Positions 9,365-52,329 of a stretch of 64,000 nucleotides of DNA are shown in pieces (positions within the stretch are counted from its first letter, which is position 1; each line of letters begins with the position of its first letter). Under the pieces are notes generated by a model. It was given only the letters and a program-made list of their open reading frames with translations, was not told the origin of the DNA and ran no database searches. The position numbers and the translations under genes are program-made. Source of the DNA: Schmidtea nova (taxonomy: Eukaryota); the NCBI GenBank assembly GCA_044892505.1, contig CM097883.1, positions 80,848,001-80,912,000 of the forward strand, given 5' to 3'.

Positions 9365-9479
9365 TACATCGGAAATACTGTCCGTCATCTCTGCACCCGA
9401 GTTCTTGAGCATTACCGACTGAATGTTAAATATAATTAGTTAGCGTTTCTTAATTATTAAATCATTGCCATGTTTCTTT

Positions 9480-9930: not shown

Positions 9931-9967
9931 AACACGAAAATATATTTTATAGCTTTATTTACAAATT

Positions 9968-12900: not shown

Positions 12901-13508
12901 AAATTAAAGGTGAAAAAAATAAAAAAAAATAATAATATTATAATTAATTTAAATATAAAATCAAATCACAAATTTACTATTTAATATCAAATAAAAATTT
13001 TCGGGTGCTATAATAAATAATTTATATAAAATATAAAAATTTAAAAAAAAATTAAAGGTGAAAAAAATAATAATATTATAATTAATTTAAATATAAAATA
13101 AAATCACAAATTTACTATTTAATATCAAATAAAAATATTCGGGTGCTATAATAAATAATTTATATAAAATATAAAAATTTAAAAAAAAATTAAAGGTGAA
13201 AAAAATAATAATATTATAATTAATTTAAATATAAAATAAAATCACAAATTTACTATTTAATATCAAATAAAAATATTCGGGTGCTATAATAAATAATTTA
13301 TATAAAATATGAAAATTTAAAAAAATAATAATAATAATATTATAATTTTACAATATTATAATAATAATATAATTAATTTTAACCAACCTAAATCTTGTCG
13401 AAATTGTTTGAATTCTGAAGTGAATTGTTTAATGAAATCCAAATCAAATACCATAGATTGATCCAATAAGATATTCGAGGGTTCTTGTTTATAAGTCGTT
13501 GAAGGGTT
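9968..13508 (-). CDS. Divergent POU-homeobox transcription factor. Exons 13508-13388, 10555-10152 and 10105-9968; 5' exon(s) unresolved
   Basis: GT-AG spliced, phase-consistent, stop-free frame. POU-specific domain DLDFIKQFTSEFKQFRQDL|GVTQSEVGISMKYYLKSDFSQTTICRFESMVLAPTNMFELIPYFRKWI. Homeodomain RKQRIQYTRLQFKKMENLFQTVQ|HTQITQHVFKKYAKELKLSEKQIRTWITKRRR. Introns of 2.8 kb and 46 bp. Confidence 0.9.
11428..11835. mobile_element. Tc1/pogo-type MITE in the POU intron
   Basis: TIRs CACCTATCCCCCGTTTTACACGG / CCGTGTAAAGCGGGGGATAGGTA with TA flanks. Confidence 0.85.
12210..13330. repeat. Tandem array of 8 units of 138-149 bp in the POU intron
   Basis: Anchor CGGGTGCTA at 12267, 12409, 12557, 12705, 12853, 13002, 13140 and 13278. 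Confidence 0.95.
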
Positions 13509-13753
13509 CTGAAAAATAGTATTTTCAATGGTTTGTTTTGATTGAAATTTAGTTTAATCACACAACTTAAATTAAATTTTATTAAGAAATAAATATTTTC
13601 AGAGAGTGCCATTTTGGCATTTATCACACCATTTCTTAGTACCTCTCAAACAATCAAGAGTTTGGTTTCAACTTCCGTTGTCCGGATTAACGAAGTTATA
13701 ATAATAAATTACAGTGAAATGTTTATTTCAAGCAGCTTCCAAATCTTTATTAA

Positions 13754-13908
13754 NNNNNNNNNNNNNNNNNNNNNNNNNNNNNNNNNNNNNNNNNNNNNNN
13801 NNNNNNNNNNNNNNNNNNNNNNNNNNNNNNNNNNNNNNNNNNNNNNNNNNNNNNNNNNNNNNNNNNNNNNNNNNNNNNNNNNNNNNNNNNNNNNNNNNNN
13901 NNNNNNNN
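13754..13908. other. Assembly gap (N run)
   Basis: Run of N. Confidence 1.
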
Positions 13909-14307
13909 CTCAGCAATGTTTATTAAATGAAATATTTCGATCTAAAAAAGATCCTGATCACTCCAATACGAAATTCTTTCCAATAGATTTATTGCTTGAT
14001 ATTTTCTTTCTCCTGAATTCTGATTTAAAATTAATTAGTGAAACAAATTAAGCTTTATTCTGAAGAAATAAAATAATATTTATTTATTAATTTTCAATAA
14101 TTAGAGCGTTTTTTCTTTAAAAAAATTAAAAAAATCTTTATGAATTTCTCAAGGATAAATCTCATTTTGAATTTTAATTTTTAACATTTTATTCTTAGCT
14201 ATTATGAAGACGACGTTAATCTGGCTCAGATTGAAATTATAAATGCAAATTGTTTTGTCGTTAGTAGAGTTTTTTAAAATATAATAATAAGGTAACAGTG
14301 TTAAGTC

Positions 14308-14487
14308 NNNNNNNNNNNNNNNNNNNNNNNNNNNNNNNNNNNNNNNNNNNNNNNNNNNNNNNNNNNNNNNNNNNNNNNNNNNNNNNNNNNNNNNNNNNNN
14401 NNNNNNNNNNNNNNNNNNNNNNNNNNNNNNNNNNNNNNNNNNNNNNNNNNNNNNNNNNNNNNNNNNNNNNNNNNNNNNNNNNNNNNN
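14308..14487. other. Assembly gap (N run)
   Basis: Run of N. Confidence 1.
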
Positions 14488-14945
14488 TTTTTATTGTTAA
14501 TATTATTAATTATTATTTTATTTTTATTGCTATTAATTATTTTTATTATTATTATTATTATTATTATTTAAGCAAACATGGCAATGATTTAATTCAAGTA
14601 AAACGTCATTTATATAACAACCGAACAATATATTTCGACAGACTCTGCCATCATCAGATGTCCATAAAAATATGCTAAATTTAGGCTAAACAAACAAATT
14701 AGAAAATATAATTAGATAAATATTATTAAATTGTTTTATTTTTTTAAAATTTTATACCCAAACATTTTTAAAAATATACAATTTAATTTGTCAAGCAACA
14801 AACCACAAATTAATTTTTAAAAATAATTAATTATTTAAAATTTCCAAAATATTTAAAACAAATATATATTTTTAAACAAAGAAAATTATGTATTAAATTT
14901 TAACCAAAATATACTAATTCAATTCAATACAACAAAATACACAAA

Positions 14946-15600
14946 CTATTTAAAAACATTCAAAATGCACGTGTTCACAGAATTCTGTACATTAATTTTA
15001 GGATTCAACGATCTCATCAACAACGCTTCACATATAATGGGTTTATAATGATTATTAAGATTTTTCGATAAGATTTTAAAATCAGATATATCAATCTTTC
15101 TGTTACAGATTTTATTATTATCACTAATATTGGACACTCCTTTCGTTCGACCATGTTCAAGAACTCGAGTACAGAGATGACGGGTAATCTCTCTAATGTA
15201 TGTAACATTACACCCATTATATGTAAATTGATAAACGATATTTGAACACAATCCAGCCGGAATTTGTGACTTATTAAAAAACACACTACTCACTTTGTAC
15301 GAATTGGAGACAATCCTAAAGTTTAAACCACTCAATTGCTTTCCTATCTTCCTTTTATACCCTCCGAAACCGACAATACCATCGTGAATTTAGGATTTTA
15401 TTGTTTGAAAGATCCTATGCTACTATTCACTACATCATCCAAATTATCATTATTATTACAATCACGTTTACAAGGATCATTAGGATTATTTATACCGTAT
15501 TATTTAACCGTTTGTCTCATCATTATTATCATCAAAAATAGTTTTGAATAACCATTCTTTATTAACAGTTCCTCTAGTGTATCTATACTTTTTATAGAAA
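14946..15600 (-). pseudogene. Penelope-like element 3' part: RT thumb plus GIY-YIG endonuclease
   Basis: LLIKNGYSK, then SNIVYQFTYNGCNVTYIREITRHLCTRVLEH and ICEALLMRSLNPKINVQ. Confidence 0.85.
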
Positions 15601-15735
15601 TTTTGAAAGTAGAAGACAAACAGTTAACAAAACAAGACTTTATAGAACTTCTAAAATTAGCAATAAATTCAGATATTGTCATAATTAAAGAAAAACCATT
15701 CAAAAAAATTCATGGATTAGCCATGGGTAATCTGT
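15600..15735 (+). pseudogene. Inverted Penelope RT fragment
   Basis: Plus-strand LTKQDFIELLKLAINSDIVIIKEKPFKKIHGLAMGN. Confidence 0.65.
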
Positions 15736-16421
15736 AAACTTGCAAACATGACGTATGAGTCTCATTATCGCCCCTGTGCACTAGTAATTAGCTTCACACA
15801 GAAACTGTTTGCAAGCGGACCTGTCTTATTTTATTTATTATTTCAATCACTTCAAATGTTTATCGGATGATGATTAATAATTCACTAATTGAATAAAAAG
15901 AAATATATTAATTTTTTTCGGTACTTAAAAATGGCTAAATAGTCATAAATAAAGAAGACTCTTAACGACTCTTATTGAATGAAAACCGCTTTATTTCTGA
16001 CAAAGATTATTGTTCTGCACTCCTATAACATATTCGCTTAATTTTCGTTCTTAATTGAAGTAGATGTGAATCTTTTTCCTAAATATACTTTAAATCGTTC
16101 TTATAGATAGCCTTATTTTAGTCTTTCTTTCCCGTAATTTATGCTCTTTGGTTTATAGGTTAGTTTTTTATGAATCATGGAAATCTAAATCAATGTCGTT
16201 TTGGATTTAATTAACAAAATCTTGAAACCGAGAATTATGATGATTAAAATATATCAAATTCCTTACACTCTGATCAGCTTCCAAAACCATTTTTATCAAA
16301 AATCCCTGCGCTCCATCCGACAATATTCACCTCACATAAAATCACAACATTTTGCTTCTTTTTAATTAAATGATTATCCAATAAAATGAATATATAATCG
16401 AATCATAAATTGACTATTTAA

Positions 16422-17331
16422 CTCTCCCTTTATATTTGGGGTCAAAATTGTCCCAGGCCGAATTTAGATTAAAATAATTAAAAAACTTGTTGATAGATTG
16501 GGCTGATATTTGTTGACTTTTTAAATGCACATTCAAAGAGTAAAAGAACGGTATTTTTGAAAGTTGTTATCCATCCATCATCATTTAATTGCTAATCTTT
16601 CAAAATTTTAATTGAGTTTTTTTTCAAGAAAATGACCGAAAGAGATTCAGGGATGAGGTTTTTGATAATTTTGAGGACTTAACGGATATCGAAGATGAAG
16701 AATCAGCAGAAATCGAACAACAATTAGGAGAAAATGATGAAATTGAAGATAGTGATGATGAAATCCCTCAAAATGATACTTTGGTTAGTAAATCTGGCGA
16801 AATAGTTTTGTCAATATCTGAAGAACCTTCTCGAAGACTTCTAGCTAGAAATATAATACGAGAACAAGCACGAATATTGATCGAATCTGAGATTATTTTC
16901 AACAATTTTGTTGCAGCGAAATTCTCGACATAACGATAAAGCATACTAATGAAAAGGCCGCTAAGACAAAACTTGATCATCAATGTTGAACCATCTACTT
17001 CTTCAGAAAAAAGGAAAAGAGAAAGATGTTTTTACTGCCCTCGTAATTTAGGTAGAAAAAGCAATGTTAATTGTAATGATTGTGCTAATTGTGTTTGTAA
17101 GGAACATTGCAGCCAAAAAGTGTTGTGCAATTCTTGCTCAGGTGCAACTCGTGATGATGAAAGTGATGATTGTGATTATGAATAGCCTTAAAATTGATGT
17201 AATTTGCTTAAATTGATAACCTTCTCATTAAATACATAAAGTTTCATGTTTTTTAAAAAAAGTTTTCTATTTGGGACATTTTTGACCCCAGATATAATAT
17301 AAGCAATTTTTTATCTGATATAAAGGAAGAG
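16422..17331 (+). mobile_element. Internally deleted piggyBac element
   Basis: TTAA on both flanks. TIRs CTCT(C/T)CCTTTATAT. Subterminal IR TGGGGTCAAAA..GTCCCA. Acidic N-terminus joined directly to the Cys-rich tail RCFYCPRNLGRKSNVNCNDCANCVCKEHC. Confidence 0.9.
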
Positions 17332-17682
17332 TTAACATCAAGTAGAAAATAACGATTGAAATACACACTGAAAATTGGTGTTGTATATATAATGTGAAAA
17401 CTTTTGATTTACATGTCTTAGAAAATGAAAATATCTGAAATAGAAAAGAATATTAAAGTTGTCACATCGATTGTCTCTTATTGTGAGTAAATGAGAGATT
17501 TCGTAAATTCTTAATAGTTTTATGTTTTATAAAGATATTTTAAATTTATAGTAGTAATTGTAATGATGCAGATTCTTGTGCGTCATGACCTATGACATCA
17601 TAGGTTAATGGCAACGTATTATTTCAATAAATATTACGTTGCGTTAAATAAATCTCATGATTCTTCCATTTGTCTTTTAATA

Positions 17683-18316
17683 ATGGATGTACAAGCTATC
17701 TGGGCTATATTGAAAAATATTGAGATCTTCCCTAGGTATTCGGGAGAAAGAGATGTTGTCAAGTGGACACAGGAATTTGAATTGAATAGTCAATAGCTAG
17801 GAGCCTTCTCACATGGGTAAGCTACTTCCCTTGCGTTTACAAGGAGCAGCTTTAGTCATATGGCGCTATTAGACAGATCTCGCAAAGAGCAGCTACTCGG
17901 ACTCGAAGGTTACTCTGTTGAAGACTTTCGGTTTAAGCCCGTTCGCTGCATTCGAAGCATTTAAATTGAGGAGATAACAATCAGGCGAAACTGTGGACCC
18001 ATATTTTAGCTCTTAAAAACGCCTCGGGGAGCTGGCAAGAACAGGCAATGAAGGAATCGTCGTGGCTTTCGTTGTTGGTCTCCCAGCCGCAGTTTCGAAA
18101 GCATTGCAAATTACGGGGATGAGCGGCAAGGAGTTTTTAATCGAAAAAGCTCAAATACTACTGGAGGGTAAAATTCCAAGTGAAGCGCAAAACTGGAAAA
18201 CCGAAGCTATGAGCGCTATTGCATCGAAAAAGAAATTCAAATGTTTCACATGTGGTAAAGAAGATCATTTCGCCAGAGACTGTCGGCGTCCGGAAAACTT
18301 CGTGGGGAAGCAATAA
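17683..18316 (+). pseudogene. gag with CCHC zinc knuckle
   Basis: FPRYSGERDVVKW..., AFVVGLP and CFTCGKEDHFARDC. Stops and frameshifts present. Confidence 0.85.
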
Positions 18317-18345
18317 GCGCCGGCAGTTTCCCTCAGAACAACAAG

Positions 18346-18800
18346 GTGTCAAGCGTCAGGATGATTAATGTACGAATCGAGGGAAAACACTTTATTGCTT
18401 TGATAGAATCAGGCAGTCCTCAGTCGATTCTGCAAAAATATCGGTTCAATGGAAACTTCGTGTCTAGTAAATGGATCGTTACTGTTGATGATCGAAAATT
18501 AGAATGTCGGGAATCCTCACCAGTCGATCTCACAATTCAAGGCTCTTCAATTGTTTTATCGTGCTTGGTGGTGGATGAGTTGCCAATGGACATTGATCTC
18601 ATTTTAGGAATGGACGCAATTGTTCGAATGGGCGACTTATACATCGATGGAAATAAAGCTATTTTCAGGAACCCAGTATCGTTGGCGGCGCCATTGTGTC
18701 TCACTGAATGCATCGACGACGATGATTTTGAAGCCAATCTTGATGGGAAAAATGGAGTACATTGGAAGTGGTTTGGAGGGTCACTGACGCTGAGAAATCA
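18346..18800 (+). pseudogene. Retroviral-type aspartic protease
   Basis: INVRIEGKHFIALIESGSPQSIL (degenerate LxDSG) and DLILGMDAI. Confidence 0.8.
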
Positions 18801-18953
18801 ACGCGGGATGTACCATTTGAAAGAACATGTGAACGTGGATCTTTTTCTTTCAATTGTAGATTGCGGGCTTAGCATATTTTGCATCTGGAAGAAAATTTCT
18901 AATGACGATTCTGTTTTTATTATCAATATACTGGGTTTCGGGAAAAGAGTTCA

Positions 18954-19458
18954 GTGAAAGAAATTCTGTCGGATATCGGGACGAACTTTCGATCTGTAGA
19001 GTTCAAACGTTTTGCAGATATGTGGGACGAATATCTAAAATATCGTTTCGCCTACAGTCACAAAGGGAATGACATTACAGAAAGAAACCACAGAACTATC
19101 AAGCGGATAGTTGCAAGATCAAGCTGTGACCCGCTAATCGCGGTTTTCTTTTATAATATCACTCCTCATTCAGGCTTGGAGGAACGTTGGAGGTATGGAG
19201 GATAATACAGTACCTGAAAAGATGCATTTTGGTCGAACGTTGAGGTGTCCAAAATTTCTGGGGGACAAAGACGAATTTCATAGCCACGGCAATTATGATT
19301 CAAAACAGTATGCTGTCAGGAAGCTCGTACTCGTCAAGCCACCGAATCGAAAACTCAACATATCTTTGACCATTGGTACGGTCAAAGTAGAAGTCGATGG
19401 CACTCCGAGACACGTCAGTCACCTTCGAAGGGTCTCCAACTGCGTTGATATTACTTAA
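18954..19458 (+). pseudogene. Integrase C-terminal fragment
   Basis: EILSDIGTNFRSVEFKRF and YSHKGNDITERNHRTIK. Confidence 0.85.
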
Positions 19459-21509
19459 CGAACAGAACTGATAAGCGACAAGGACCTAGATGATACAGAA
19501 TTTATTAGTGTAGTTTCACCAAGAACGAGAGCCTATGAAAGACTATGAAATTGATCCTAAGGTCACGGGATGAAGATTCTTGTTAGTCATGACCTATGAC
19601 ACCATAGGTTAATGGCAACGTAATATTTCATTAAATATTACGTTGCAGTTCTTCTTCGAGATATAAATAATTGTGCGTTAAATAAATATCATGATTCTTC
19701 CATTTGTCTTTTAGCAATGGATGCACAATAATATAATTTGTTATAAAATAAAATTATAGGATTTTTGTGAATTATTTGTTAAAGGTAAAATTTTACAAAT
19801 TCTTGTTTTAAAAAGTTTAAATTTAAAAAATAACAATTAACTCTTTCAATACAATTCTATCAAATAGATTGAATATTGTCTTTATCATCTGTTTTTCCCA
19901 TAATTTATGAATCTTTAACTTTAATTAAAGATGCAATTTGACTATTAACTTCAGAATAATTAATCATACCTTCTTCAAGCTTTCTAAATCTTGTTCCGTT
20001 ATCAATATAAAATCTCTACATCGTAAACAATCATCCAAAATGGGTATATTATTATCGTGATTATTCATATAAGCTTGGAGATCTTTGTTTTGATTGACTA
20101 AAAACTCATTTAATGTCCCAATCTCTGCTTGCTTTTCGGTGACACTGCTAGACAATGAAGCAGATATTTCTTTGGTTAAGATTTGTAAATCAGAATTCGT
20201 AAAACTTGTGTTTTCATTGCAATCATTATTTGTTGATAATCTAATTGGAACAGAAATCTACATTCATATTTACTACGCACAATATACATAGAATCACATC
20301 ATTACTCGATTTCCATTATTATCCTTTAATACAAATTTGCACGGTTTATCATTTTCTGTATATTCAGTGGGAAATAAAAAACATTTCATGATATTTATCA
20401 ATTGTATTTAAGCAGTAAAATTTTAATTACACTAATAAAAGAAAAAATTTCGCAAGCATATAAATATTAAATTATTTTTTATAATATTGTTTTTTATAGA
20501 TTGACTAGGAGAAAAAATAATTTGATTTCTTAAAATTTTTAGATAAATTTGAAATATTTCATATTTTGTAAATTATATAAACAAAGATATATTATTAATT
20601 TGATATTGTTTGAAGAAAATTAATTAAATTACTCATATGTAGTCAAAAATTTGATCAATAAAAATAATTGTATAGTTTTTTAGATAATAATGTTTTCATT
20701 AGTTTTGCTTTAGTGCATTTTTTCAACTCCAATTTAAGTTGTAAATGATTTAAGAACAAGATTTTAACTTTCGGTTTATCTAAATGTTGACACAAACACT
20801 TAACCCATCTAGCATATGTTTAATAGCTATTTTCAAGCCGTTTTTAAAAAACCCTTTTAATTACTATTTACTAAATTTTAGAAGATTTGTGAAACTAAGA
20901 ACTTTGTATAATTGTTGGATTTGTTCATTATGTTCCGTTCAACTCTTGGTACACCTAGGGAGAGAAACTGTGGTTAATACTGATGAGTTGTTTGTTTTGA
21001 GTCGGTTTATTATCTGACTTCTCGGGCTCCTATAATTGAGAAATCGCCAAAGCCCAATACAACAAATTTTATTAAATTCCATTAATATACAATGATAACA
21101 TTTAGATTTTCTGCACAAACACAGCACTCTCTTTTCTGTTTAGCGATAGTGTTTGGTCTACCAAAGGTAGATAGCTTTTTCTAGTGCGCTTCTTGATTCG
21201 CTAATGTTGAATTCCACACAATCATCTTTTTAGTTTAATTACCAAATGTGGTTTTCAATACAGGATAAACTAATAAGTTTTGTCCAGTGCTCATACTCAG
21301 CTTTACAATGCTGTAATGAGTGTATAGGTCTGCAACCTTGTGTGTCTATGCTATATATGTTGTAGATTTGTAAAATTAAAAAAATGACTTATTAATAATT
21401 TTGAACATTGCTATTAATTTTGATATATCTTACATGGATTAGGCACTTTTAATAAATTTCTTGTTTGACTGAAATACTTTTTGTTTTCATTAGAATACGT
21501 CGATTTGAA

Positions 21510-21940
21510 ATGAATTTCGCACGAGAGGATATCCGCAAGTTAATCTACTACAATTGGAAACGTGGATGAGTGCCTTCCCAGATTGCAAATGAAATACATT
21601 TGACACTGGGAAAAGACACAACAACTCTTGATATCAACGACAAAATTCTAGCTCTTTTGGAGGAGCACATCATTACTGTGGAAATGAGCGTGAAGCTTGG
21701 AGTTTGCCAGCAGACAATTCGAAATCATCTGCTTGCAATGGGCATGCGTTACCAGTGCAACCACTGGGTCCCACACAAGTTGTCCGAGCAACAAATAGCT
21801 AACGGTGAAAAAATATGCAACGAGTTGCTGTTCAAGTATGCTGCTAATGACTTCCTCAGTCAGCTCATTACAATGGACGAAGTCTGGATCTATTGGAACA
21901 ACGACGGAACCTATCACCACCGTTTGTGGAGAGGCGCAGG
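21510..21940 (+). pseudogene. Truncated mariner transposase
   Basis: REDIRKLIYYNWKRG*VPSQIANEI (HTH), WVPHKLS and LITMDEVWIY (first catalytic D). Internally deleted and 3' truncated. Confidence 0.88.
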
Positions 21941-22102
21941 TTTCGTGTCTTTCGATTCTTTTAAACATTGCAAACTTGGTTGATACATTTTCCTATCTTT
22001 GTAAAAAAATCTTTTAACATCTCCTATAGTCGTATTATCACAAAGATTCGGATATGTTCCTAGAACTTTTCCACTTCTAATATCTTTAAATTGAACTTCC
22101 AT
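21941..22102 (-). pseudogene. TECR: Possible 5' fragment of very-long-chain enoyl-CoA reductase (ubiquitin-like N-terminus)
   Basis: MEVQFKDIRSGKVLGTYPNLCDNTTIGDVKRFFYKDRKMYQPSLQCLKESKDTK resembles the TECR N-terminus as recalled (EVEILDAK..ATIAEIK..WYPARQSLR). Splice acceptor just upstream of the ATG. No downstream TECR exons recognised. Confidence 0.5.
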
Positions 22103-27365: not shown

Positions 27366-28362
27366 TGAATCACTAAGTGTAGAATTGACGTTGTTGAAAT
27401 TTGTTAGAATCTTTACTTTAACTCCTCCGAGATCAAGATTTTTGAAGTAAAACATCCTTATATATGTTCTTAATAATATAATTATGGTAAATTTATTACT
27501 ACTTTGCTAGAATTGCTCTTACTAATTTGAATAACTACGTATTAATTTAAAAATTTCGCTTTTTTAAAGTGATTATTTATCGTTGATAACCGGCAGACCT
27601 ATTTATTGGATGTTTCAGAAGTAGGGGATAGTAAGGACTCTGGGCCACTTTTTTCACATAGCAACGGTTGCTAGGTTGGAAAAGATAACTCTGTTGCGTT
27701 TCGGTCGGAATTGAAAGTAACTATAAAATTTGATGATAATGATATCATTATTATCGATTCCCGATCAAAGAATAGCGGTGTAGTCAAAATTGGTTTCGAC
27801 AATTAAAATCAATTCACAAAAAAATTTTTTTTTAATTAAAATTTATAATTTAGTAATTAATAATTTAGTATTGTTATTAAGGGAAATTTTCTTATGTTAT
27901 TTGTAATATCAAAAAAAAGAAATTTTAAATTAGTAAATTACTATTATTATTAGTATTGGTACTCATATCTTTATGAGTTTAGAGAAACTGTAATTGTTAT
28001 TATTATTGTTGTTATTATGCTATAGTTATTAGTACTGTTGGGTTAGTACAAAGATAAATTAAAGACATATCAAACAATTAATCAAAAAAGGGATAAGATA
28101 TAAGAGAAAACATTAAAAGAATAAAGAAATAAGAAAAATAATCAGTAAAGAAAAATAAGCCAATTAAAACAAATAAATGAGAAGGAAACTCAATCAAAAA
28201 CGATATAAACGCGAAATTAAATAGAAAATTAGAAATAACAAGAAGCAAAGAAAATAAATGTAATTAATAAAAGGAAATAAGAAAATAATAATGAGAATAA
28301 GAAAAAAATAAAATAACACAATAAACTGGGTCATTGGACCAATAGGAAAATAGCTCGATTCT

Positions 28363-28431
28363 GATTGGCTGCCTGAGCCTCGATTTCACTATATAAAGAA
28401 GTGCTCAGGACAGCAGAATTAATGTCATTTT
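28363..28431 (+). promoter_or_regulatory. LTR Pol II promoter: inverted CCAAT, TATA, initiator-like TTAATGTCATTTT
   Basis: GATTGG at 28363, TATATAAA at 28390, TTAATGTCATTTT at 28419. Same order and spacing at 54847-54916. Confidence 0.7.
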
Positions 28432-29831
28432 ACACTCGAGCTAGCAATTTTATCCCACACACTTATTTCAATTGTTCGACAACACTCGGAGGAAGAATCA
28501 TCCTAATTGTGAATCTTGATCGGAAAACCATTGCAAGTATTCATGTTACTGTTTAAATACAATTTTATGCCGATAATCATACTTGTTTTCATGTGTTTAT
28601 TATGCTGCATAGATAATGAGAGGGTCGCCGCGATCTCGTGGTTGCCGGCTCTCCAGGGCGAACTGTCCCTGTTTCGTGTCTCGACACGGGGCGGAGATAG
28701 GTTGCTCTATAAAGACCTTTTCATAATATAGGCAGTGAGTGAAGGGTGAATGTCGGAAAACAGGTAGTAGCGTTCCGGAATCCTTAGAATTAATACAAAC
28801 TTTCAGAAAGAGCGATATGAGAGTGGTAGTAATAATAATCAGTTCAACGGTAATATCCCGCCATCCAAAGTCGAAAAATGATTAATTAGGAAGTCCCCGA
28901 AATTGCGAAGTTGCAGCTGGGAACAAATACAAAACTCTAAACCGTCAATTTTTTCTCTATAACTACGTAGGTACGATAGCGCGAGAATTGTCTAAACGCC
29001 GTAAATTTGCAGATATCCACTGAATATACTAGGCAGTACAATCCCTTTATTTTCCCGGTTGATTTCGATATGAAACTTTAACGAAAGCGTAATTTACTAA
29101 ACGAGTCAGATTTTCTACAATTTCATCAGCGTTAGTCATATGGAGCCGTCTCGTATAAACCAATTAACAAGAGAAAGTTGACGTAGGCAAATTTCTTCCG
29201 GAGTAGGGGATAATTTCTTACCTGAACAATCGATGAATGCAATAAATAGTCAAACATCAGAGAAGAGAGAGAATAGTTTCGCGTATTAAAGTAATGAGAG
29301 TTAATGTTGGGTTGGGGAAGCTAATGGCCGGAAACCAATTAATGAGTGACGGCGTGCGAGTGGTGTAAATTTTTAATGACCGGAGATGGAGTGATGGAAA
29401 ATAAATAATTAACATGAGGGAGAGAATCGTTTTCAAACCAACCCAACATTTAAATAATCACGAAACCAATTCTAAAGTTTAAGAAATTTTTACGTCACAA
29501 AATAAATCTAAGGTTATTACCATTTAACTTAACCAAAGTTGTAGAGACGGCAGTGAGTATTATAGACATAGTGAAGCCGTGTTGTAAGAAATTCTGACTA
29601 TTAATAGGTAAATTCTAATACTAACAGTTAGTAAATGTTGAACACCATGTACACAGACGCCGAATAGTTAAATAAGATAACTATTTTCAGTACGAACACA
29701 AATTAACTACGAGCGATTCCAATTATCATTAATTGCGTCGATACAAACTTAAGTTGACCTTGAGGGCCCATGATGTTAATATATAATCAATATGATATAA
29801 ATATATTTGAATATGTAGAATCGGTCCTAAC

Positions 29832-30281
29832 ATGTTCTACACTGGCTTACAAGTCCGAGGAGCGAGGGCGGAGTCGTCGACGATCCATGCATCTACAACC
29901 AACCACAATGTACACGACAATCACTTGATTTTATTTATACCCCTCAAGGAAATCCCTACAGAACTAGCCAGAGAAATTTTCGCCAAACATCGAGCGGAAT
30001 TCGAGCGAACGGGGGCCATCCTTCCTTTTAGTTTATTCAAAGATAGCCCTTCCGAAATCATCTGGCATGGCAGTAAGGAGTGGCCGATCGATGTGGATCG
30101 CCCTTATTGGCCCAATCAAGCGAGCTATTTCGTGGAGACTCCCACTGAGATCCCAGGGAGATTTCAAGTATATTTCAAAGGCGAGATACCCAAAGCCGAA
30201 TTTCTGACACGGGACGATTTGTGTTCGCTCCCGCTCCAACGACAAGCCCTACTGACTCTCCGTTCAGCCCCTCGACGTTAA
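29832..30281 (+). CDS. LTR-borne small ORF type A (WPIDVD family), unknown function
   Basis: Open 149 codons. Homologous relics at 26924-27365 (-) and 61760-61955 (+). Confidence 0.6.
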   Translation: MFYTGLQVRGARAESSTIHASTTNHNVHDNHLILFIPLKEIPTELAREIFAKHRAEFERTGAILPFSLFKDSPSEIIWHGSKEWPIDVDRPYWPNQASYFVETPTEIPGRFQVYFKGEIPKAEFLTRDDLCSLPLQRQALLTLRSAPRR

Positions 30282-30758
30282 GTGAATCTGATGAAAGCTA
30301 CAACGACGCTAAAATCCTCAAGGAGGACTAAATTTTAAATGTGTTGCATCTGTAGTCCGTTAAAATTATATGTTTGGGTGTTGTTCAATTGTTCTTGATA
30401 AATTAAGTGTTTTAGTACAGTTACAAGAATAATTACAGTAACCAGTAATACACCATAAACATAAATGAATTACATCGTGAGATAAGAAATAATAACGATA
30501 GAAATCTCAACTAGGTATGAATAGACTGAACTTCTATAAAATAATAAATAAAGGAAAGCACATCTTATAATAAGTCGGAACAAGTTAGACGGGTCCGCCC
30601 CAGGAATGAACACCCAAGGGAAATCACATAAAATGATTGATGAAAAGTAGAATAACTTTTATGAGAACCGAGTAGGAGTCGCCTAAGAATCATCCTTGTT
30701 ACAGTTAAACATAATCATGCTGTTAGGATTTTATCTTTCTTTCTTCATATAGGAAACT

Positions 30759-31173
30759 ATGGCTATCAACGAAAAGACAATAGGACAATTAAAGAGACCT
30801 CAAGAGCAGTTATTTTTCACCGGCCGAAATGAAGAGATTAAATGAAAAATTGATAAGAGCGGCCCAGGTGGTACAAGATCAGAAGAAGGAGATAGACGCG
30901 TTGAAGATCGAATTGAAGAACTGTCAATCGATCATAACGGAAAGATTTATAGCCGTAAACTTGAGAGAATTGATTCCCCCTATAACCTTGGAGAAATGGT
31001 TTTCTACGCCGGATCAGTCAGCACGTACAGACATTGAGACGACGACAATTCAGCCGCCAAAGCGAAGACGACGGAAATCGCCTGCGCAACGACGCCACCA
31101 GATAAAGTTGAAGTTAGAAATCGAAACGACCAAAGTAACTATCGGGATGGACGTCGACCGACCGATTGCATGA
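30759..31173 (+). pseudogene. LTR-borne small ORF type B (coiled coil plus basic tail); +1 frameshift near 30790
   Basis: Polypyrimidine tract and AG at 30751-30752, ATG at 30759. RDLKSSYFSPAEMK..QKKEIDALKIELKNC..LRELI..TLEKW aligns with ORF 56658. AATAAA at 31216. Confidence 0.7.
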
Positions 31174-33170
31174 AGACTCAGAACCATTTGTGTATTATGA
31201 TTGTAATGTGATGGGAATAAATACATGTATATATAAGGTCTTGTTGTTGCTTAGATAAGTTTTATTTCCAAATAAAACTAGTAATCATAATTGTACGGAA
31301 TAAACCATTGTTGAGTGAACTAGTAAAGTGTTAGAAAATAAGGTAGCCAGTAGGAACTCGTAGAGTAGTAGCGAAAGGGCAAGTTAAGAAATATTAAGCG
31401 AACACCCGAAATTAGTGACCAGCGCAGGGTGAGAGGAAATAGAATAAGACCTTCTATCGGTCAAGTGAGAACCCGAACGATGCGACAAGTCAGGAGTAGT
31501 TCTTATAAAGGAGCTCACCTGCTGACTTGCGATCGGCTGTTATGCACATTTCCAACGTGAATGATTAGGGTAATTCACGGGTGCATGAACAGTAAAGCTT
31601 TTATGTGTGTGTTGGACCCTAGAGAGCAAGGAAGTGTAGTTCAAGAATATGAAGTGCAGTAGACATAGAGAGGTAGAAAGCAACTTTAGGCTTTGATTTT
31701 TATTACAACACACCAACAGTACTATTATTAATATTAATTTACATTAATAAATTATTAAATTATTATGTTTCTTTAAGAAACTTTCTTATTATGTTTAGTA
31801 TCGTTATCAAATTACTATTACTGAAATATTATTATTTTTTTGTAAATAGAAAAAGAAAATTGTAATTAATAAACTATTATTCAATAATTTTTTTTATTAT
31901 TGAAAATTTTAACCCATTAATATTATTAGTAACGTTAAATTTCGGCGTTAATTATTTTATTTATTATTATTATTAGAAATTTTATTAATATATAAATAAA
32001 TTTTTAATAGTTAAATTTTGCATTAGAATTTTGAATTTGGCTTGCTATAGCAAATTTCTGTAGTAAGCCAAAATACAAATGAAAAAAAATCGATTTCTAA
32101 CAAAAAAAATAATTACAAGATTAAGCTAATAAATGAAGGTTTCTGTCAATTCCTTTTGGGATAACTTAATAGAGTAAAAAAATTATTCTACTCCACGAAT
32201 TTGGGGAAGTAAATTTTCTTACTGGGCTCCTGTCCTACAACTAATTATCAATTGTTTTCCATTTTGAAATTTCGAATTACCCTATCATCATAAGCGACAA
32301 GGTTGGATTCTGTCATAGGCTAAGAATCAGTTATTCACCAAGTCAATCCCCAAAGAAATATTTCTACCGATATTAAAGATTCAATTAAAGATTTGTTACT
32401 TATCCAAGAGGATTGGAAAGTAAATTACAAAGACAATCCCTAAAGAAATTATTTCGCTGAATTAAAGTAACTTCGTGGTTTTAGAACTCATTTAAAAACA
32501 TTTTCTTCTGAATATAACTTTTTTAAATAATTAATTTGTTATAATACTTTGTTGTTATTTGGTTACAGCATTCACAAATACACATGCACCCAGGCACACA
32601 AAAATATAAACACTCACCCCAAGTGATTCCACATAACTTTCAAGAGACTCTCTTGGGCTTTGCCACTTCTTCCATACAACACACTATATCTCAACCTATA
32701 TAAATACATAAATACCAATAGAAAAATATTGTATACCAACAACGTGTAATAAAATTACACTTCCATTTTATTTCATCAATGTGGCACTTATGGTTTTGTT
32801 ATTTCAAATCCTTTTTGCATTTTTTAAAGTAATTAGAGTAATTTCACTGCTGTATATGTTCGAGTCCTTTGAATTTAAATAATTTTTAATTGAAAAACAT
32901 ACTTTGAATTGATGACTTCATTTCCGATTAATATTGCTTTTATGATTGTCATTTATTAATGGGCACATCAATGCCATACAAAGATATTTATTCTTTAAAC
33001 GATAAATGCCACAAAAGATTTTATTTTTTATAATCAAATTTATAACCAAATTCCATTTAAATGAACTTTGAATAAAGAATTTCTAACTTTTTTCAAACAG
33101 TATTTTACTTTTTACATTTTCTTTCTAAAAACCGTGGATGGTGTAAAAACAATCCAACCGTTGAAAATAA

Positions 33171-40622: not shown

Positions 40623-43237
40623 ATGCCTCAATATAGGCAATTAAAGATTAGCAATTCTTTGAAATCGTCAACATCTGATTTATTCAAACCATTGCAAATG
40701 GATGAAAAATTTAAAAATACCATATTAAACTACAGTATACGCAATATCATAAAACCAGGTATTCGAGGTATCCTAAGGCGTATTGGGGTTTTAAATGCAA
40801 ATACTTAGGATGCGTTTGCATTACAAGTTGGAACTTCCGTTGGAAAATATTTAGGAGCGTTAAACGTTAGTAATTATGTTGATCCACTGAAAACTTCTAT
40901 TAAAGACCATTTAAAACCGTATGGAGATCACGAAAGATTAGGTTACAATTCATTATCTAATCACGATGGCTATTTAGAAATTACAGATTTTTATAAACAT
41001 GAAATAGATTTAAATTCATTCAGTATTTATCAGGACAAAACCTTACAAAATTATTATGAGCCTAACCGTTTTAATGATCATAATGACCTATTTGAAATTA
41101 TGGAAATTAGGATCCCAGGCATTAGTTTATATAATGGCCTCAGACTACTGGAAAAACTATTATTACGGAATGGCAATAAATATAGTGATATGGTAGAATT
41201 GTTAAACTCAGACCAGTTAAATAAAGGCTTTCTAGCTGAAAATCCAGGTTTATTAAAACAATTAAAAGAATCAAGCGAAAACATAAAAAATAAAAAACTC
41301 ATGTCAATAATATGTCTAAAATTATGCAGCAGAATTCGAAAGTATTAAATATGTTACAAAAATGGGAACACAATACACCTGACTTTCGGAATGTATTACC
41401 AAAATTGCTACATATATACTCAAATATATGGTATCATAAAAATAAATCCGAGAACACTTATATGATAAGAAAATAAAAAACGATCCTTTTACTGACCAAT
41501 CGTTACATATACTTAAACATAACAGTGTAAATAGGTTACAAACCCGAGAAGAAATTTATAAAAAAATTGACAGTTATCTACGTCTTTCTCATGATCAAGA
41601 TCCTGATACTTCTGTACATCCCAAATAACCTAAGCCGCAAGATATGAAGAGGCGAGTTAATTACATATAATTAATTTTTTGCGATATTATTACCACAATA
41701 ATCATCATAATAGTGTTACCCATACTGAATGGAAGCAGTTAGCTAATAATTTAATACAACCTTATGATAAAATAGTTAGTAAAAAGAACATGGACATGTC
41801 TACATTAAATCGATTTGATCATATTAAAATGACTGAACATTTATTGGACACCCATGCTAAAGGGGTAAAGAAATATAGGCACTCAAATACAAGTATAAAA
41901 GCGTTTGATAATCTATTTGGGAGCAGCAACAAGGAGATTTCAGGCCACAACTCGGAAATGACAGTCTTGAATTCATCAGTACCAATTGCGGAGCTAGTTG
42001 CATCAGTACCACCGAACAAGGCGAATGGTATAATATTCCAGTCGAATATCCTTACCCTCATATCATGTATGGTAATCCAGACTCATGAGCTGCTATGCAA
42101 AAATATTTGCGGTGGAAACCGAAAAATATACATTTTGAAATATTCAATATTCAAGGTGTTGGGGAAACCTCTCCACAAAATTTTAATGGATTAGAAAATC
42201 AAGTTGAAATGTTGGTTCTCAGAGATAAAGCTCATATCTATGGCCCGTGTACTATGCCAGAAAATAAAGCAAAAGCGTTTAAAGACCTTTTCTTAAATGA
42301 AGCATTTTCGCATAATGGTTATAATGTAAATAATCAATTATCTAAATTAACTCCCCAGAAATTATCAAAAGCAGGTTGGATATATTACCCTGAAACTTGT
42401 CCAGAGGTTAAAATAGCTAACTGTAATACAGGAGAAACAATAGAATACAGTTATGAGTCTAGCAAAGTAAAATATCCTCGTTATATTGTTGAGTGAAGGA
42501 ATCAACATTATGATCTTAAAACTTTTAAAGACAATGATCCATTGTATTGGCATAGATGGGATTATTTTAATTGCAAAGTAGTGAAACCATTCTCATATAT
42601 GGGCGGACTAGACAGTCGGACTATAAATACTATCAATAGAACGGTTCCATTCCCTTTGAAGATACGCTATCACAAATGGGCTAGAACGTGGAATGAGAAG
42701 CTTAAACGACCAATGTATAAACATGGAGAAACGGAAGTTAGTCTTCATCACAAAACTGTCCCTACGGATAAAGATTTAGTCGATGACTATTTTACCCCTA
42801 AAAGATTATATCTGGATGAATTTTTCAGTGTAAACGCAGCCAAGGATATTTCGGAACATAATCCCATGTCTCAATTATTTATAAAATTAAATACTATGAT
42901 AGGACCTCAAGGTAATCAGATCAACCTTACTTGTACTTTTAATTGGAAAATATCTTATACTAATGAAATGTACGGGAAATTACCAACTATAAATATTCAT
43001 CAAATATATGATGTTACAGATAGAACTGCTCAGTTTAATCAGCCTTAGCAACCTATAACAAAATGGATGACACCGTCTATATTTTATTGTATGCATGTGT
43101 ATTACTGGATTAGAGATGAACTATCTAAAGATGATTATTTATTATCCATGATCAAACATAATGCAGCAAGATTCAAGATACCATCTAACATTTTGTATCA
43201 TATGCAAGCAAGATTAGGTCAACCTAATCCCTTGTAA
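40623..43237 (+). pseudogene. Endogenous parvovirus/densovirus-like capsid (VP) gene with several stops and frameshifts
   Basis: PDS*AAMQKYLRWKPKNIHFEIFNIQ parallels parvoviral [47 protein letters not shown] parallels PPPQILIK..VSVEIEWEL. One frame from ~41910 to 43237 with stops at 42086, 42494 and 43046. AATAAA directly after the final stop. Confidence 0.75.
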
Positions 43238-45756: not shown

Positions 45757-46429
45757 TAATCAAAATAATTCTAACAAATACCAAAGAATAGTCAATTGCA
45801 ATATCTTTGTGGCTTAAACGTTTTGAATTTCAATCCAAATCCAAATTCGAATTCATGCGAATAAACAATTCATCTCATCCACATAGCAAGCGAAACCAAA
45901 ATACATTAAATTCTTCCTTATCCAAACAGCATTATCGAGACTAAACTTTAATTTAACTTCCTAAATCCAAATCGAAACTAATTCAAACTATTCTAAATCT
46001 AAAATACTCAATTGGAGTATTCAAACAAACCAATCTAAAAATCAATTCTCCAAATCCACTATTAACTCAGAAATTCAGAAAATCCATTATTAGACAACTA
46101 AAAGAATTCGAACTAACGCGCACACAGACGCGAGCTTCTAATTAGATTCATTGCGCACACAGACGCGAACTTGAAATATAAAAAATAAGCGCATACAGAT
46201 GCGAATAGAAAATAAAAAAAATGCACCACAAATAGCCAAAGTTTGCTCAGGCAAACTTTGGCTGAAACAATACTTATTTTATTTATTTATTTTGTTCATT
46301 ACTACTTTTACTTATTCATTTACGATTCATACTTATTATTTATTTATTTTTGTTTTATTCATTGTATAATTATTTTCTTTAACTTATGTGAAGTTGGGAG
46401 CACAAAAGAAACATAAAACTTGAAATAAT

Positions 46430-47390
46430 AATTTAAAAATATAATAATAATAATTTGAAATAATAATTTGGACTTGAGCTTCCTCGACTCTTTTCTTGGA
46501 TAAAAAAATTCCTTTATAATTGGTTTCATACACCATTTGACCACATTTATTTACCGCTTGTTTCCTAATAAATCTCATACCATCGTCTAATAAAGTTGAC
46601 ATCAATACAACTGGAATTTTTCTACTTGTCAATGGAGTAATTCTGATTGTCATGTCCGGTTTTGCCTCCACATGCAAATTTTCCGGCCTTTCAACAAAAC
46701 GCATTGTTTTTAGATGTATTAGATTACATAGATTTGTTTTAACTACATACACTAAAATTGATTCTCCTGTTTGGCAGCTAGACTGCTTCATATTATAGAA
46801 TGGATGCGTTTGTAACTTGCCTGTATCGTCATCAAAGGCTCCTTGGAATTCACTCAATTCCGTCAAATATCTTCCATCACAACAACTTGATCAATAATTT
46901 TTCCATTCATTTTGTACGGTTCTCCTTTACAATCCCCATTAGCTCTTATTGTCCCTTTTTCGATAAATTGATTCTCGTATCGCATAATTCAATTTAGCTT
47001 TCAATTTAACCTCATGGCTAATTTTCACTTCCCCTGTTTGAAACGCAGCCAAGCAATTTTCTGGGTTTACATCAACTGGCCTTGGGATTGAATACATTTT
47101 AATTAGTGATGTGTGACTCCATTTGCCACAATAAAACACAAATCTCGTTCTTTTAACAATGCACTCTCTTACAACTGCATGTCTAAAGCCGGATTCTTGG
47201 TATACATGATACTTTACATCATTTTCCACTGTTAGACTCATTGGGTGTGCATCAGAACATTCTGTCATGTTCTCCATGGAATAAATCTTCCCCATTTTGG
47301 TTTGAGAACAATCGTACGCAATTAAAGATGTCGTTTGAGTCGTAATCACACATAATATTATGATAATTTACCTTTTCACAATTTCGTTGA
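46430..47390 (-). pseudogene. Viral/retroelement envelope glycoprotein N-terminal part (chuvirus-G / class III-like), frameshifted and truncated
   Basis: Hydrophobic IIIILCV then AYDC..MTEC..RECIVKRTRFVFYCGKWSHTS..PENCLAAFQTG..GDCKGEPY..DQVVV..NKCGQMVYETNYKGIFL. The Cys spacing matches chuvirus-type glycoproteins as recalled. Confidence 0.7.
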
Positions 47391-48609
47391 ATAATTTCTC
47401 TTTATCACAATTATTTTCAGTTCTTATTCAAGAGATTTTTTTTCAATAATTTTCCACTAACTTTGATCACGTCGGATTATGACACAAATAATTTTATTCA
47501 ATAATCTATTCACCAACTGGTATCACATCGGACTCACAAAATATGTTGGGTTCTGGGGTTGTTGGTGAAATGGAAAAAGTTACCAATCAAATATCTGACT
47601 CCAAAGCGTGCTTTATTGACCCACAAATAACAAATTTCAATGACACAAATTTTATTGATTAATACAATGAACTACACGATTCAAAATATCACGATCAATC
47701 CAATACCTCTCTCGACAATTATACGAGCTTATTACGATACTTCGTGAAGAATAGCTCACTTGTATAATGTCTAAAAACAACAACTACTAATCACTGACTT
47801 GGATTAAATATTGGTGATTGATTTTGATTGTTTCTACGCTTTGACTTCGTTCTTTGTTAACCACCTTGACTCTTTATTCAATCAAAATGTTTTATTCTGT
47901 TCATTTAAATTATTTCGATCTCAGTTTTCCACAATACAATTTAAATCTTCTATCGTTTTCCAATTTCACGCACTCAATTTTCTACTCAATTACAACTCGA
48001 ACTCTCTATTTTCTTCGCCAACTTCACTTCCACTTTGCTTCTTCAATTTTTTCTTCTCCGACTTTACTTCTGATTCAGCTCCGATTGCTTTCGCCTTTTA
48101 TAGTTTGCCATCGTCCGTCACTCTTGGCATTTCGCCTTTGCCACTCCCATCTTTGGCATTTTCCATTTTTTTCTCCGCAACTCCCATGTTCCACCAGACA
48201 GTTCGGCACTCGTAACAACTTGCTTTTTTTTCATTTCTGCTTCTGGCATTTTCTATACTTTTTTAGAACTCCCATGCTGCCTTTGACAACTCGGCACTCG
48301 GACTACTTTGATTTTTCTTTTTGCCGCTCCGGCCTGTTTTCTTTTCGTTATCTTTGACAAGCTGTCGAGATAAGTTCATTGTTGTTATTTTTGTTTTTCC
48401 CGATTTGAAATTCCTTTTCCCTATGTACTAATTAATTAGTGCTGACCTTTGTTTTTGCTTTCTTGTCTGATTTATTTTGTCTGATTCCTCTTTCTCATTT
48501 CTTTTTATTTCCGTTTTCTCTTCTGATTTCCCATTAGCCGTCTCATTCGTCATGACGATTTTCTCCAGGTAATTTTATTATTTTTGTATTTAATGTATCC
48601 TCAACAAGT

Positions 48610-48687
48610 TTAAAAAAAGCCACGAGCTACCAAAAAAATTTAAAAAGACCGCTACGCAAGAAATACAAAAAAGTTTGAGAACCACTG
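48610..48687 (-). mobile_element. hAT (Charlie/Buster-type) terminal fragment
   Basis: Reverse complement begins CAGTGGTTCTCAAACTTTTT. Confidence 0.65.
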
Positions 48688-51600
48688 CTCTACACGTTTA
48701 ACTGTAATTCACAAATATTTATGTATGAATGCCTCGAATGATCTACACGTATTTCTGCTTAAAGAAAATGCAAATTAGAAATGTAATATGATGAGTATAT
48801 ACTGACTTGTAGCAACCGTTATGTTTTTGTATCATGTATGAATTACAATTTTTATAATATTTTCCCCGATTTTTTAAAAATTTTATGTATGATATTTTGA
48901 CAAAAATATTTTTCGTGTAAATTTTTACTATTTCAATATTAAATTGTGAATGATTCGATGTCGGCTTATCGGCTTTAGCGATTTGAGACAACCAAAGAAG
49001 AACATTTTCATCAACGTTTATTTGATTCAACACAATCAAGTAAATTACAACTCATGGAAGGATAGCCGGATGTTCGTTTATAAAATTGGTGAACGTATTT
49101 TCAAAGTCATATATAATGATCGAATCCTGGTGACGAATATACATGGCGAACATTATTAAGTTTAAAATACTTCAATTTAATACAATCAAAAGATTTCAAT
49201 AATATATTATTTAAACATAAAACCGAAATCCTACCGAAATTAAAGCAAAGAAATTTAGACAAATTTAGAATTACGAAAATCCTACAATAAATCAAGACAT
49301 TCAAGAAAAAAATTAAAGTAATTAATTTTAAAATAATGTAAGTAATTTAGTCTTTTGATAAGTGGTTGAATTTGCGTATGAGATTTATATGGATTTCGAT
49401 ATGTCCGTCAAACATTCACCACATTTTTAAACCGAAAAAATATTAAAAATAGATAAAAGTAACTTAAGTAGAGAATTGTATTTGATCAAATATTTCGAAC
49501 CGAATTGAGACATTCGATATATTTTATAGTGACGGTGCTGTTGCTAAGGATATTTAAATAGATTTGGGATGAAGTTAAATCTTATTCAATATTACGAAAT
49601 AATTTGAGGATTGAGTTTAGATGGAATAAAAAGTTACAGCCATTGAACCCATGAATGTCCGAGAAATTAAAATTTTAGCAATGGTTAGCAAATGGTAAAA
49701 TAATATTGTGCGGTACCAATAGAAATGAAATATATAAACCCATTGGTAACCCAGAAGTATTAATGACTAGCTTCGATGCGGTTCGTTTATAAACTGGTTT
49801 ATGCATAATCAGATTTATTTTCATTTTTTCGTGTTAATTTTGCACTATTTTTTGCACTGTTCATGCATTATTCTCATAATTTTGTGTATTTATTTGTATA
49901 TAAACAAAAAATAATTTGGATTCATTTATCTGTAATAAGTGGGTCATAAAACTTTATAAATAATTACTGTAATCAGTAAACTCTTGTGAATTCTAAACAG
50001 AACAAAATCCCGTTTTAGACAATAAATTAATATTATGAAGTGTAAATTCGCAGTCCCATGAAAATATTCTAATTACGAAAAATTATGTAGAGAAAGCCTA
50101 CCATAAAAATAAGCATTCATAATCGCAAACGAAACTATGATAGTATAGCAAATAAATTAAAAAGAAATATTTTGTGCAAGGACAATTTCGAAGGAAAATT
50201 AAAATTATATTTCATGTGTTAGGATGTCATAATAAAATTTTGACTGAATAAATGTATACTTTTCTTATTGCTTTTAATGAAATAGTATTGAGTATGTTCA
50301 TTGGCAACTTCATACTTGATAACTTAACACAGAGATCTTTAACAGTGTTGTTCGGTGGGTCGAAGAGTGAATACAGATTCTGATGAGATGGAAAAGATGT
50401 TTATGAGAGCGAAGGCGAGTAACGAGTTAGATGAAATTATGCTGACGATTTTTATTATAATAAAGATCTCGATGGATAGATGAACATTGTTTCTCGTTGA
50501 AATGTTATTTTCCTTTTGCGATCATCCGCCCTGATACCAGACTTCATCTTTGCCGCGAGTTTCTAAAATAGGAAAAGGGAAATCTACTTCTGAATTCTGT
50601 ACGCCACAGAAAGGCGCATCTCCCTGCCGACTTCTTGTGGGATATGACGATGGAGAAGTTTCAGGGACCCAAACATCCGTTGTCGATACGCGGTAGTTTC
50701 CGCTGGTACGATTTCAGAGACGATGGAGTAAATTCGACCTTGCTGAATTTCTATCCGGCCCATAACGTTTATACGAAATTTTCCGGATGATGGTTGACAA
50801 GACTACCATTTATATCCGGTCACTCGTATTTTCGGTCGAACTATTGCGAACGATATTTGCTAGACCTTGACATATTTTCGGACACATTGCTTATTCGCCT
50901 GATGGTGGAATTTTATTTAAATATGCGATATTAGTTAGTGTCATTCACTTCATGAGCTCTGTAGTGATGGATCGTTGATATCGATGGATATTTTGTTCAA
51001 CCCGTGGTCTTCTTGCTAATAGACTAATATTTTGCTGAGGTTGGGACGGTAGCAAATTCCTACTCCGAAGAGAATTAAGTTAGACTATCTTGGGAAGAGT
51101 GTTTCATAACACGAAAGTATTGCCGAAAAAGTGATCGCCTATTTATGGTACTCCTGTATTCCAGGTCGCATCCTACTCAATCTAGCTTATCTTGGGATAA
51201 CTGTCGGACATGCTTTTGAGCAGAAAATAATCTCCGTACGACCTTTACAAAATGGTTTAGACTACCAACCATTGATGAAAGTGCTCACTAATCATCCCTC
51301 ATAACTGGTTTATACTATCGATCATTTCTGAAAGGTGTTCACTATGCATCTCTCAAATAGGGTTTATGATATTATTCGTTATCGAAAATTGTTCACTGTA
51401 CATCTCGTGGTATTATCTAAGTTTAAAAAAAATCTCACCATTTCCGCGTAAATATGAGAGTCAAGACGGTTACGGCTTCAGTCTCATGGCTCTCACCACA
51501 AAAGCTGCATCTATCTGATTTTAGAACTTCGGTTTAAAAAAATGACATTTGCGTTTTCTTAAAAAATGAAATGATATAATAAACACGAAAATCAAAATTA

Positions 51601-52329
51601 ATTTATTATCCGAATAAAATTTAGTAAGTCTCTCGAAATTAGAGTTGTCGGTAAAACTAAGATTGATTAAGTAATTATGTTATTACAAGCTGGTAGTAAA
51701 GTATGCAGTGGTAAAAACCAAAATTAATGCTGCTCGCCACTGATTTAGCGTCAGTATTTATACTATTCTGGTCTGTCGGGTCAACCAATCATATTCGACT
51801 TACCACCTAATGCGTGGTAAATTATTTATCTTTAGATTTTCCGTCTGCTGGATCGGTATTGAGACATATGGTCATAAGTCATTTGTTCATAGGACAAATG
51901 GCCATAGCCATTTAGTCATATTGACTTTTGGTCGTAAGACGAACGCTCATATGACAAATAATCAAAGGACAAATGGTCACAGGGCAGATGTTCATAAAAT
52001 AAATAAATTTCAATATTAACATAATACTGTTTATATATTATTGGTTACTCATAATAAGTGTTTTGTATAGTATTGTCATAAGTGGATTATTTTCATAATA
52101 AAGGAGTGGTTAATTATTTATAATTTGTCTTTACTTTATAGATTTATTTTACTAAACAAAATAAAACGGCTGAAATAATAAAATAATGTTTTGTACATTA
52201 TTGTCATCAGTGAATTGTTTTCCTATTAATTGCATTGTTAGTTATTTATAATTTGTTTTTGCTTGATAGATTTACTTTACTTTAATAACACAATACGAAA
52301 AAATAATTGTTGGAATGGATAGACAAGGT

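Follow-up and report, generated by a model that had tools for sequence, protein, structure and literature searches.

Errantiviruses, a term taken here as Chary and Hayashi define it operationally, carry only an ENV of the HSV/gB type in Nematoda, Bryozoa and Platyhelminthes, with the order GAG-ENV-POL, according to the parts of the catalogue drawn on here (Chary and Hayashi, eLife 108449, PMC13524379). The supplement to that paper sets out domains I–II of six Schmidtea mediterranea elements, and its entries for Smed_errantivirus_1 and _2 give 45 and 215 intact copies respectively, an ENV of HSV/gB type with cysteine class C1a, LTR 'none' and no primer-binding site (PBS) (eLife 108449). In its phylogenies flatworm elements fall in clade E for RT and clade Y for IN. 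In the planarian element Burro, env lies in frame between a BCL2-like domain and a protease and matches mononegavirus fusion glycoproteins, and decayed Burro fragments occur in Dugesia japonica, as stated in the sections of the original description cited here (Arkhipova and Yushenova, 2019, PMC6431247). The element class is thus already in print, having been described in 2019 (PMC6431247) and catalogued in 2026 (PMC13524379). The locus reported here lies in a 64,000-nt stretch of Schmidtea nova DNA (the window) and is very probably a dead piece of a Ty3/gypsy LTR retrotransposon of the flatworm GAG-ENV-POL type (a Burro-like 'errantivirus'), from a family nearest to Smed_errantivirus_1/_2.

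The env relic and its relatives

The minus strand from 47364 to 46466 encodes the N-terminal half of a class III fusion glycoprotein, about 300 aa with two frame breaks, in the following pieces.

46966..47364, minus strand: env piece 1, 133 aa, open; last part of a hydrophobic signal/TM segment and beginning of the ectodomain, with the match to PF24664
46869..46958, minus strand: env piece 2, 30 aa in the other frame, with the GxCxG motif
46466..46857, minus strand: env piece 3, 130 aa, remainder of domains I–II

Six-frame translation places IIIILCV, AYDC, C-x9-YCG-xx-SH and C..A..TG within a single open minus frame from 47367; GDCKG, the GxCxG motif, lies in a second minus frame (about 46958–46869), and from about 46857 to 46468 the reading returns to the first frame and ends just past a CG-x5-T motif. 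The ectodomain motifs listed by the first-pass annotation are therefore all present, on the minus strand, although they occupy two frames (the frame breaking near 46965 and again near 46865) and the last of them is CG-x5-T rather than CG...T. Homology ends at about 46466 and not at 46430, the limit proposed earlier. The same annotation had called IIIILCV signal-like, but a stop codon stands immediately before it and there is no in-frame Met, indicating that what is left here is part of an internal hydrophobic segment and not the start of a gene. The relic covers about 297 of the roughly 616 aa of the env region of homologue P0010, piece 3 stopping (about 46466) ahead of the central helix, crown and membrane anchor; no one frame encodes an entire ectodomain with its central helix and a C-terminal membrane anchor, and one otherwise conserved cysteine is substituted. 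This is a relic and not a functional class III member, and it has no capacity to make a fusogen. That the host has co-opted it as a truncated env, expressed from the LTR promoter as a restriction factor or a secreted decoy, is scarcely credible: a TATA-bearing LTR in the sense orientation does lie upstream, and what remains of env is a compact unit of domains I–II, but there is no in-frame start, the frame is broken twice, the conserved cysteine is replaced and the divergence is like that across the multicopy family.

Piece 1 matches the Pfam family PF24664 (Monjiviricetes_fusion) with an E-value of 2.4e-17 and 62.6 bits (curated cut-off 27) over profile positions 9–134, and a search of 1.84 billion protein representatives gave 95 homologues of it at E≤1e-3. 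This similarity is far above chance, so that the homology is established and the earlier identification of a class III (chuvirus/gB-like) glycoprotein relic stands. All three pieces match the same homologues in collinear order. Piece 1 is 67% identical to P0001, 56% to P0096 and 39–40% to the polyproteins P0004, P0005 and P0006; the collinear matches of piece 2 are to P0096 (residues 201–230, 53%) and P0009 (931–959, 52%), and piece 3 is 39% identical to residues 317–442 of P0010. By eye, piece 1 agrees with Smed_errantivirus_1 at 64 of 85 positions and with _2 at 61 of 85, the first 56 aa of piece 3 agree with each of the two at 43 of 56, and P0001 differs from Smed_errantivirus_1 at about seven of 111 positions. 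Searched against PDB sequences, piece 1 gave three weak, unrelated matches only and a 39-row profile gave none; no related locus was confirmed in viral contigs (six pattern matches) or in metagenome contigs (92 pattern matches).

The company that env keeps in its relatives was examined by a Pfam scan of 26 of the 95 homologues, picked as the best and longest. PF24664 was found in 25 of these, and in nine the chain also includes retrotransposon domains. Env is followed by protease, RT, RNase H and integrase, in that order, in P0006, P0013, P0022 and P0051, and in P0097 (4,844 aa) it precedes several proteases, RT, RNase H and integrase, with an ankyrin match besides. Upstream of env, P0004, P0009 and P0080 show a zinc knuckle or a weak Retrotrans_gag match, while P0008 and P0032 show a weak Bcl-2 match just before it. 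The families downstream of env are RVT_1, RT_RNaseH, Integrase_H2C2 and rve, an order that we take to be gypsy-type and not BEL/Pao, and no BEL/Pao-specific Pfam family was reported among the 31 proteins scanned. Some deposited sequences need separate comment. Two of the best matches, P0001 (the best of all) and P0003, are env fragments fused to unrelated host domains (PF06984 or a FAD-oxidase C-terminal domain) and are probably not real fusions but erroneous gene models that span a transposon relic; P0013, an env-pol polyprotein of 2,627 aa entered as a protein of a Flavobacteriaceae MAG, is probably animal retrotransposon DNA binned into a bacterial genome.

Retrotransposon polyproteins make up five of the ten best matches to piece 1, whereas the named chuviral G proteins score far lower (P0059, Amblyomma dissimile mivirus, 30%; P0092, Tacheng tick virus 4, 27%). 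It is on these matches, together with the 72–77% identity to the Smed elements against 27–30% to chuviral G, that the assignment of origin rests. They bear out the earlier suggestion that the env belongs to an enveloped LTR retroelement, the relatives being Ty3/gypsy GAG-ENV-POL polyproteins, and displace its BEL/Pao or direct-chuvirus framing.

Fold comparison gave a strong answer for a relative and a weak one for the relic. An AlphaFold model of the full-length homologue P0008 (pLDDT 81) matches the G protein of Tacheng tick virus 4 (E 3.5e-44) and HSV gB (E 4.2e-14), so this homologue is predicted to have a gB-like fold. The model of the relic's own 127-aa piece gave one BFVD match at E≤1e-3, to the G protein of Wuhan tick virus 2 (E 1.9e-4), and against PDB class III fusogens filled seven of 11 rows with Z-scores of only 2.1–2.5. 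In a careful tree of 27 hand-picked rows and 133 columns the relic groups with P0001 (95/91) and then with P0096 (96/96); a quick tree had 86 rows, 21 of 106 matched proteins having been left out for short overlap. A 92/80 branch has all eight labelled polyproteins on the relic's side and the named viruses outside. The phylogenetic comparison with viral G proposed at the outset therefore puts the relic on the polyprotein side, but joining its clade to the viral and insect glycoproteins is not rejected by the AU test on these 133 columns (p 0.258), and for this reason the gypsy env assignment is based on identity and domain context and not on deep tree topology. This AU result, the fold and Pfam family held in common with chuviral G and the Wuhan tick virus 2 glycoprotein as top fold match of the fragment are what could be said for a direct endogenous viral element, from a jingchuvirus or mononegavirus G mRNA, or for a BEL/Pao env of the Anakin type. 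Set against the 67–77% identity to gypsy env, the distance from named chuviral G, the domain families of the scanned proteins and the fact that the 64-kb window showed neither a viral N nor a viral L ORF, either origin is very improbable.

The adjoining LTR, leader and junction

Three features on the same strand lie directly upstream of env.

47544..48606, minus strand: LTR, 1,063 bp, starting TGTTGAG and ending CCCAACA (TG...CA), with a sharp repeat end
47528..47539, minus strand: candidate primer-binding site, 4 nt past the LTR end
47365..47543, minus strand: leader, about 180 bp, directly joined to env, the probable deletion junction lying at about 47365

Where a decayed charged ORF had been proposed (47400–48550, minus), the sequence is that of a purine-rich LTR: the longest open stretch in each minus frame is 44–54 codons, with 18–25 stops per frame, and none of the 95 env homologues, several of which include gag regions, matches the interval, which was rejected as a gag remnant. 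The 1,063-bp LTR has a purine-rich U3-like part (42% A, 23% G), a TATA box at 48102 and AATAAA at 47656 and 47617. Its limits were examined in four sequencing runs of one organism, which showed no differences in the flanks (48550–48968, 49309–50289 and 50459–52000) and so represent the host. Summed contig depth in run X1 was 22,187–262,203 over 47456–48697, falling to 223 in the next bin, compared with about 65–70 in unique flanks (64–66 in the three pieces just named). Loose contig ends fall exactly at 47544 (at least 103 in X1, at least 55 in X2 and at least 61 in X4) and are mutually unlike (agreement 0.43–0.44), which, with the TGTTGAG and CCCAACA termini, identifies the end of the repeat as the end of an LTR. 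The Troyka element was considered as a counterpart and set aside, its termini being CG...CG with duplications of 3 bp at the target site (TSDs) in the portion of its description cited here (PMC12440569), as against TG...CA at this locus. No TSD flanks the LTR at 48606–47544 (AACT versus TATT) and it is therefore not a clean solo LTR. The candidate PBS is complementary at nine of 12 nt, by eye, to the 3' end of tRNA-Trp as given in the tRNA list of eLife 108449, a weak match that exceeds the limit of two mismatches used in that paper.

The leader is multicopy (X1 depth 1,274 at 47420), and contigs of three runs connect the 47537 side with the 47475 side, showing that LTR end and leader are adjacent in other copies too. 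Env depth is about 3,300–13,000, and the summed depth of the env bins about 4,000–17,000; such sums do not translate into a copy number, but they show that the env family is multicopy. At least three X1 contigs depart from env at 47364 into other sequence and at least four continue past 46466 into other sequence, so that other copies extend beyond both ends of the relic, which is truncated at each. Among the pieces listed no contig bridges the leader–env junction at 47364, so that the assembly, in which there are N gaps, is what supports the junction; the bin that includes it has the lowest depth (4,096 in X1). A spliced env mRNA was considered as the source of the leader–env join and rejected, as the sequence that precedes 47364 in other copies has no AG acceptor at its end. 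The 64-kb window contains no gag, pol or 3' LTR of the env element.

We read the LTR at 48606–47544 as the 5' LTR of the env relic, and LTR and env as parts of the same element. The two have the same orientation, env begins about 180 bp past the LTR end, and a PBS-like site with no TSD is what an internal deletion would give. A different history for this side of the locus, in which env has the same origin but the 1.06-kb LTR and the leader come from another LTR family through nested insertion plus deletion or through a misjoin of collapsed repeats, is unlikely, though it has a real claim to attention: in addition to the unbridged junction, the LTR ends are far deeper than env, and the leader depth, about one-third that of env, also fits two families. 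High LTR-to-internal depth ratios are, however, usual where solo LTRs are common. A second possibility, a non-autonomous LTR–leader–env family that arose by a single deletion of gag and was then multiplied in trans in its shortened form, corresponds to the architecture of the relic itself, and only three of the X1 contigs listed leave env at 47364 although env is multicopy. We regard it as improbable, given that other copies continue upstream of 47364 and downstream of 46466, that no listed piece spans the junction and that depth is at its minimum there. A shade less probable again is that the LTR–leader–env join marks not a one-off deletion but an env-only derivative of a planarian GAG-ENV-POL element, gag-less and multiplied, whose intact copies could supply envelope apart from the polyprotein; if true, this would amount to a division of labour that the parts of eLife 108449 and PMC6431247 cited here do not mention.

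Long-LTR elements and other features of the window

The window also contains LTRs of a second, longer kind.

28036–31718, plus strand: long solo LTR, 3,683 bp, with 4-bp TSD GTAC
54473–57643, plus strand: long solo LTR, 3,171 bp, with 4-bp TSD TTTC
49531..51800 (limits approximate), minus strand: old element of long-LTR type, with a promoter block match and mostly single-copy depth (≥80% identity)

The promoter block of the third (about 51795–51674) aligns with the promoter of the solo LTR at 54473–57643 with a score of 55, the best of 100 shuffles being 32. The minus-strand long-LTR element placed beyond the env by the first-pass annotation is thus real (51800–49530), but it appears to be separate from the env relic, and nothing was found in the window to connect env with the long-LTR family; about 0.9 kb separates the end of the minus-strand long LTR from the start of the short one. 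The proposal that the relic represents an enveloped version of the long-LTR lineage finds no clear support in the short LTR itself, which has its own termini: its comparisons with the two long solo LTRs scored 51 (best of 20 shuffles 56) and 75 (shuffle maximum 65), the latter marginal between two A-rich sequences; its promoter block matches those of the long LTRs at chance level, blastn gave no match to them outside low-complexity DNA, and resemblance is confined to the last 20 nt or so. The long solo LTRs carry internal open frames: ORF 30793–31170 has a counterpart at 56658–56990 (33% over 82 aa), ORF 29811–30278 recurs at 27455–27131 (minus) and 61734–61940 (plus), and ORF 55873–56361, the one such frame scanned, gave no Pfam match.

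Elsewhere in the window, a 175-aa open frame at 39065–38541 (minus) has a weak match, below cut-off, to the Bcl-2 family PF00452 (E 7.6e-4), matches the pre-env region of P0008, P0009 and P0032 and is cut by another repeat at about 38590. Judged by these similarities it appears to be a second, separate Burro-type relic, suggesting that elements of this type are decaying elsewhere in the window too. A high-copy repeat (45800–46465) abuts the env truncation point and includes a perfect 13-bp hairpin with a 4-nt loop (46234–46263). Four neighbouring ORFs of 135–183 aa at 40809–43048 (plus) have no significant Pfam match; the last had no usable Atlas match and a protein-like recognition score of 2396, and to us is presumptively reminiscent of the end of a parvovirus-like capsid. 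Direct repeats of about 130–160 bp, 2 kb apart, surround a 232-aa ORF (18259–18957) at 17565–19728 (plus); we assume the ORF to be a retroviral-type protease remnant and the whole a small deleted LTR element. The segments 3673–5579 (minus) and 53723–54357 (plus) match each other by tblastx and are presumably hAT-transposase-like remnants, and 21570–21983 (plus) we take to be a mariner-like transposase remnant.

Proposed history and comparison with described elements

The best reading of the relic is as an internally deleted, 3'-truncated provirus. An element would have inserted, and an internal deletion would have removed gag and so fused the 5' LTR and the leader to the start of env; env would then have lost everything past about residue 300 and afterwards suffered the two frame breaks. 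Intact homologues are a single polyprotein, with Gag, in some a Bcl-2-like domain, a hydrophobic segment and a class III gB-type fusogen with its anchor, followed by protease(s), RT, RNase H and integrase. In these relatives host signal peptidase and the element's own protease presumably free the fusogen, which would trimerise and could let particles enter other cells; the discussion section of eLife 108449 calls the mechanism of entry unknown.

The env relic is a genomic fossil of an ordinary kind; it does not represent a new case of virus capture. Its family, about 25% diverged from both of the nearest Smed elements, may, on sequence divergence, be uncatalogued, so that the flatworm GAG-ENV-POL retrotransposons are extended here by one decayed copy and, probably, by one family that is not in the catalogue. 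What is gained, on a small scale, is a candidate LTR and a candidate primer site for the lineage of Smed_errantivirus_1/2, for which the catalogue entries cited here list neither. On the wider question, whether a gB-type env enables movement between planarian cells, the relic is no more informative than the published intact copies.

Among described systems the Anakin elements, BEL/Pao retrotransposons with a chuviral env reportedly described by Dezordi et al. in 2020, resemble the present case in being LTR retrotransposons with a chuvirus-like glycoprotein, but belong to another superfamily and host group, the relic's relatives having gypsy-type RT, RNase H and integrase downstream of env. The G proteins of Chuviridae/Jingchuvirales (Tacheng tick virus 4, Amblyomma dissimile mivirus) share PF24664, the cysteine pattern and the class III fold; chuviral G is, however, encoded by a gene of its own next to N and L in an RNA virus and is only 27–30% identical to the relic, whose relatives are retroelement polyproteins. 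The Burro/GYPSM1 giant Gypsy elements of Dugesiidae, for which Grohme et al. in 2018 are said to be a further source, are alike in the placement of env in the relatives, and a Bcl-2-like relic is also present in the window. Burro-1 differs in that its ORF1 is 4,873 aa with extra domains, as given in the cited part of its description (PMC6431247), whereas the Smed_errantivirus_1/2 ORFs are only about 8.8 kb (14.8 kb minus the 3-kb flanks given in the methods of the catalogue). With Smed_errantivirus_1/_2 the likeness is closest in numbers, the 72–77% identity (by eye) extending over 141 aligned domain I–II residues, with homology reaching the end of the domain I–II block in the supplement; both they and the relic's family are multicopy. 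The relic differs from them in being broken, in lacking gag and pol and in having a 1.06-kb LTR that adjoins env, and it is about 25% diverged from both, which are 64% identical to each other. On this comparison the relic's family is probably a sibling family of Smed_errantivirus_1/_2.
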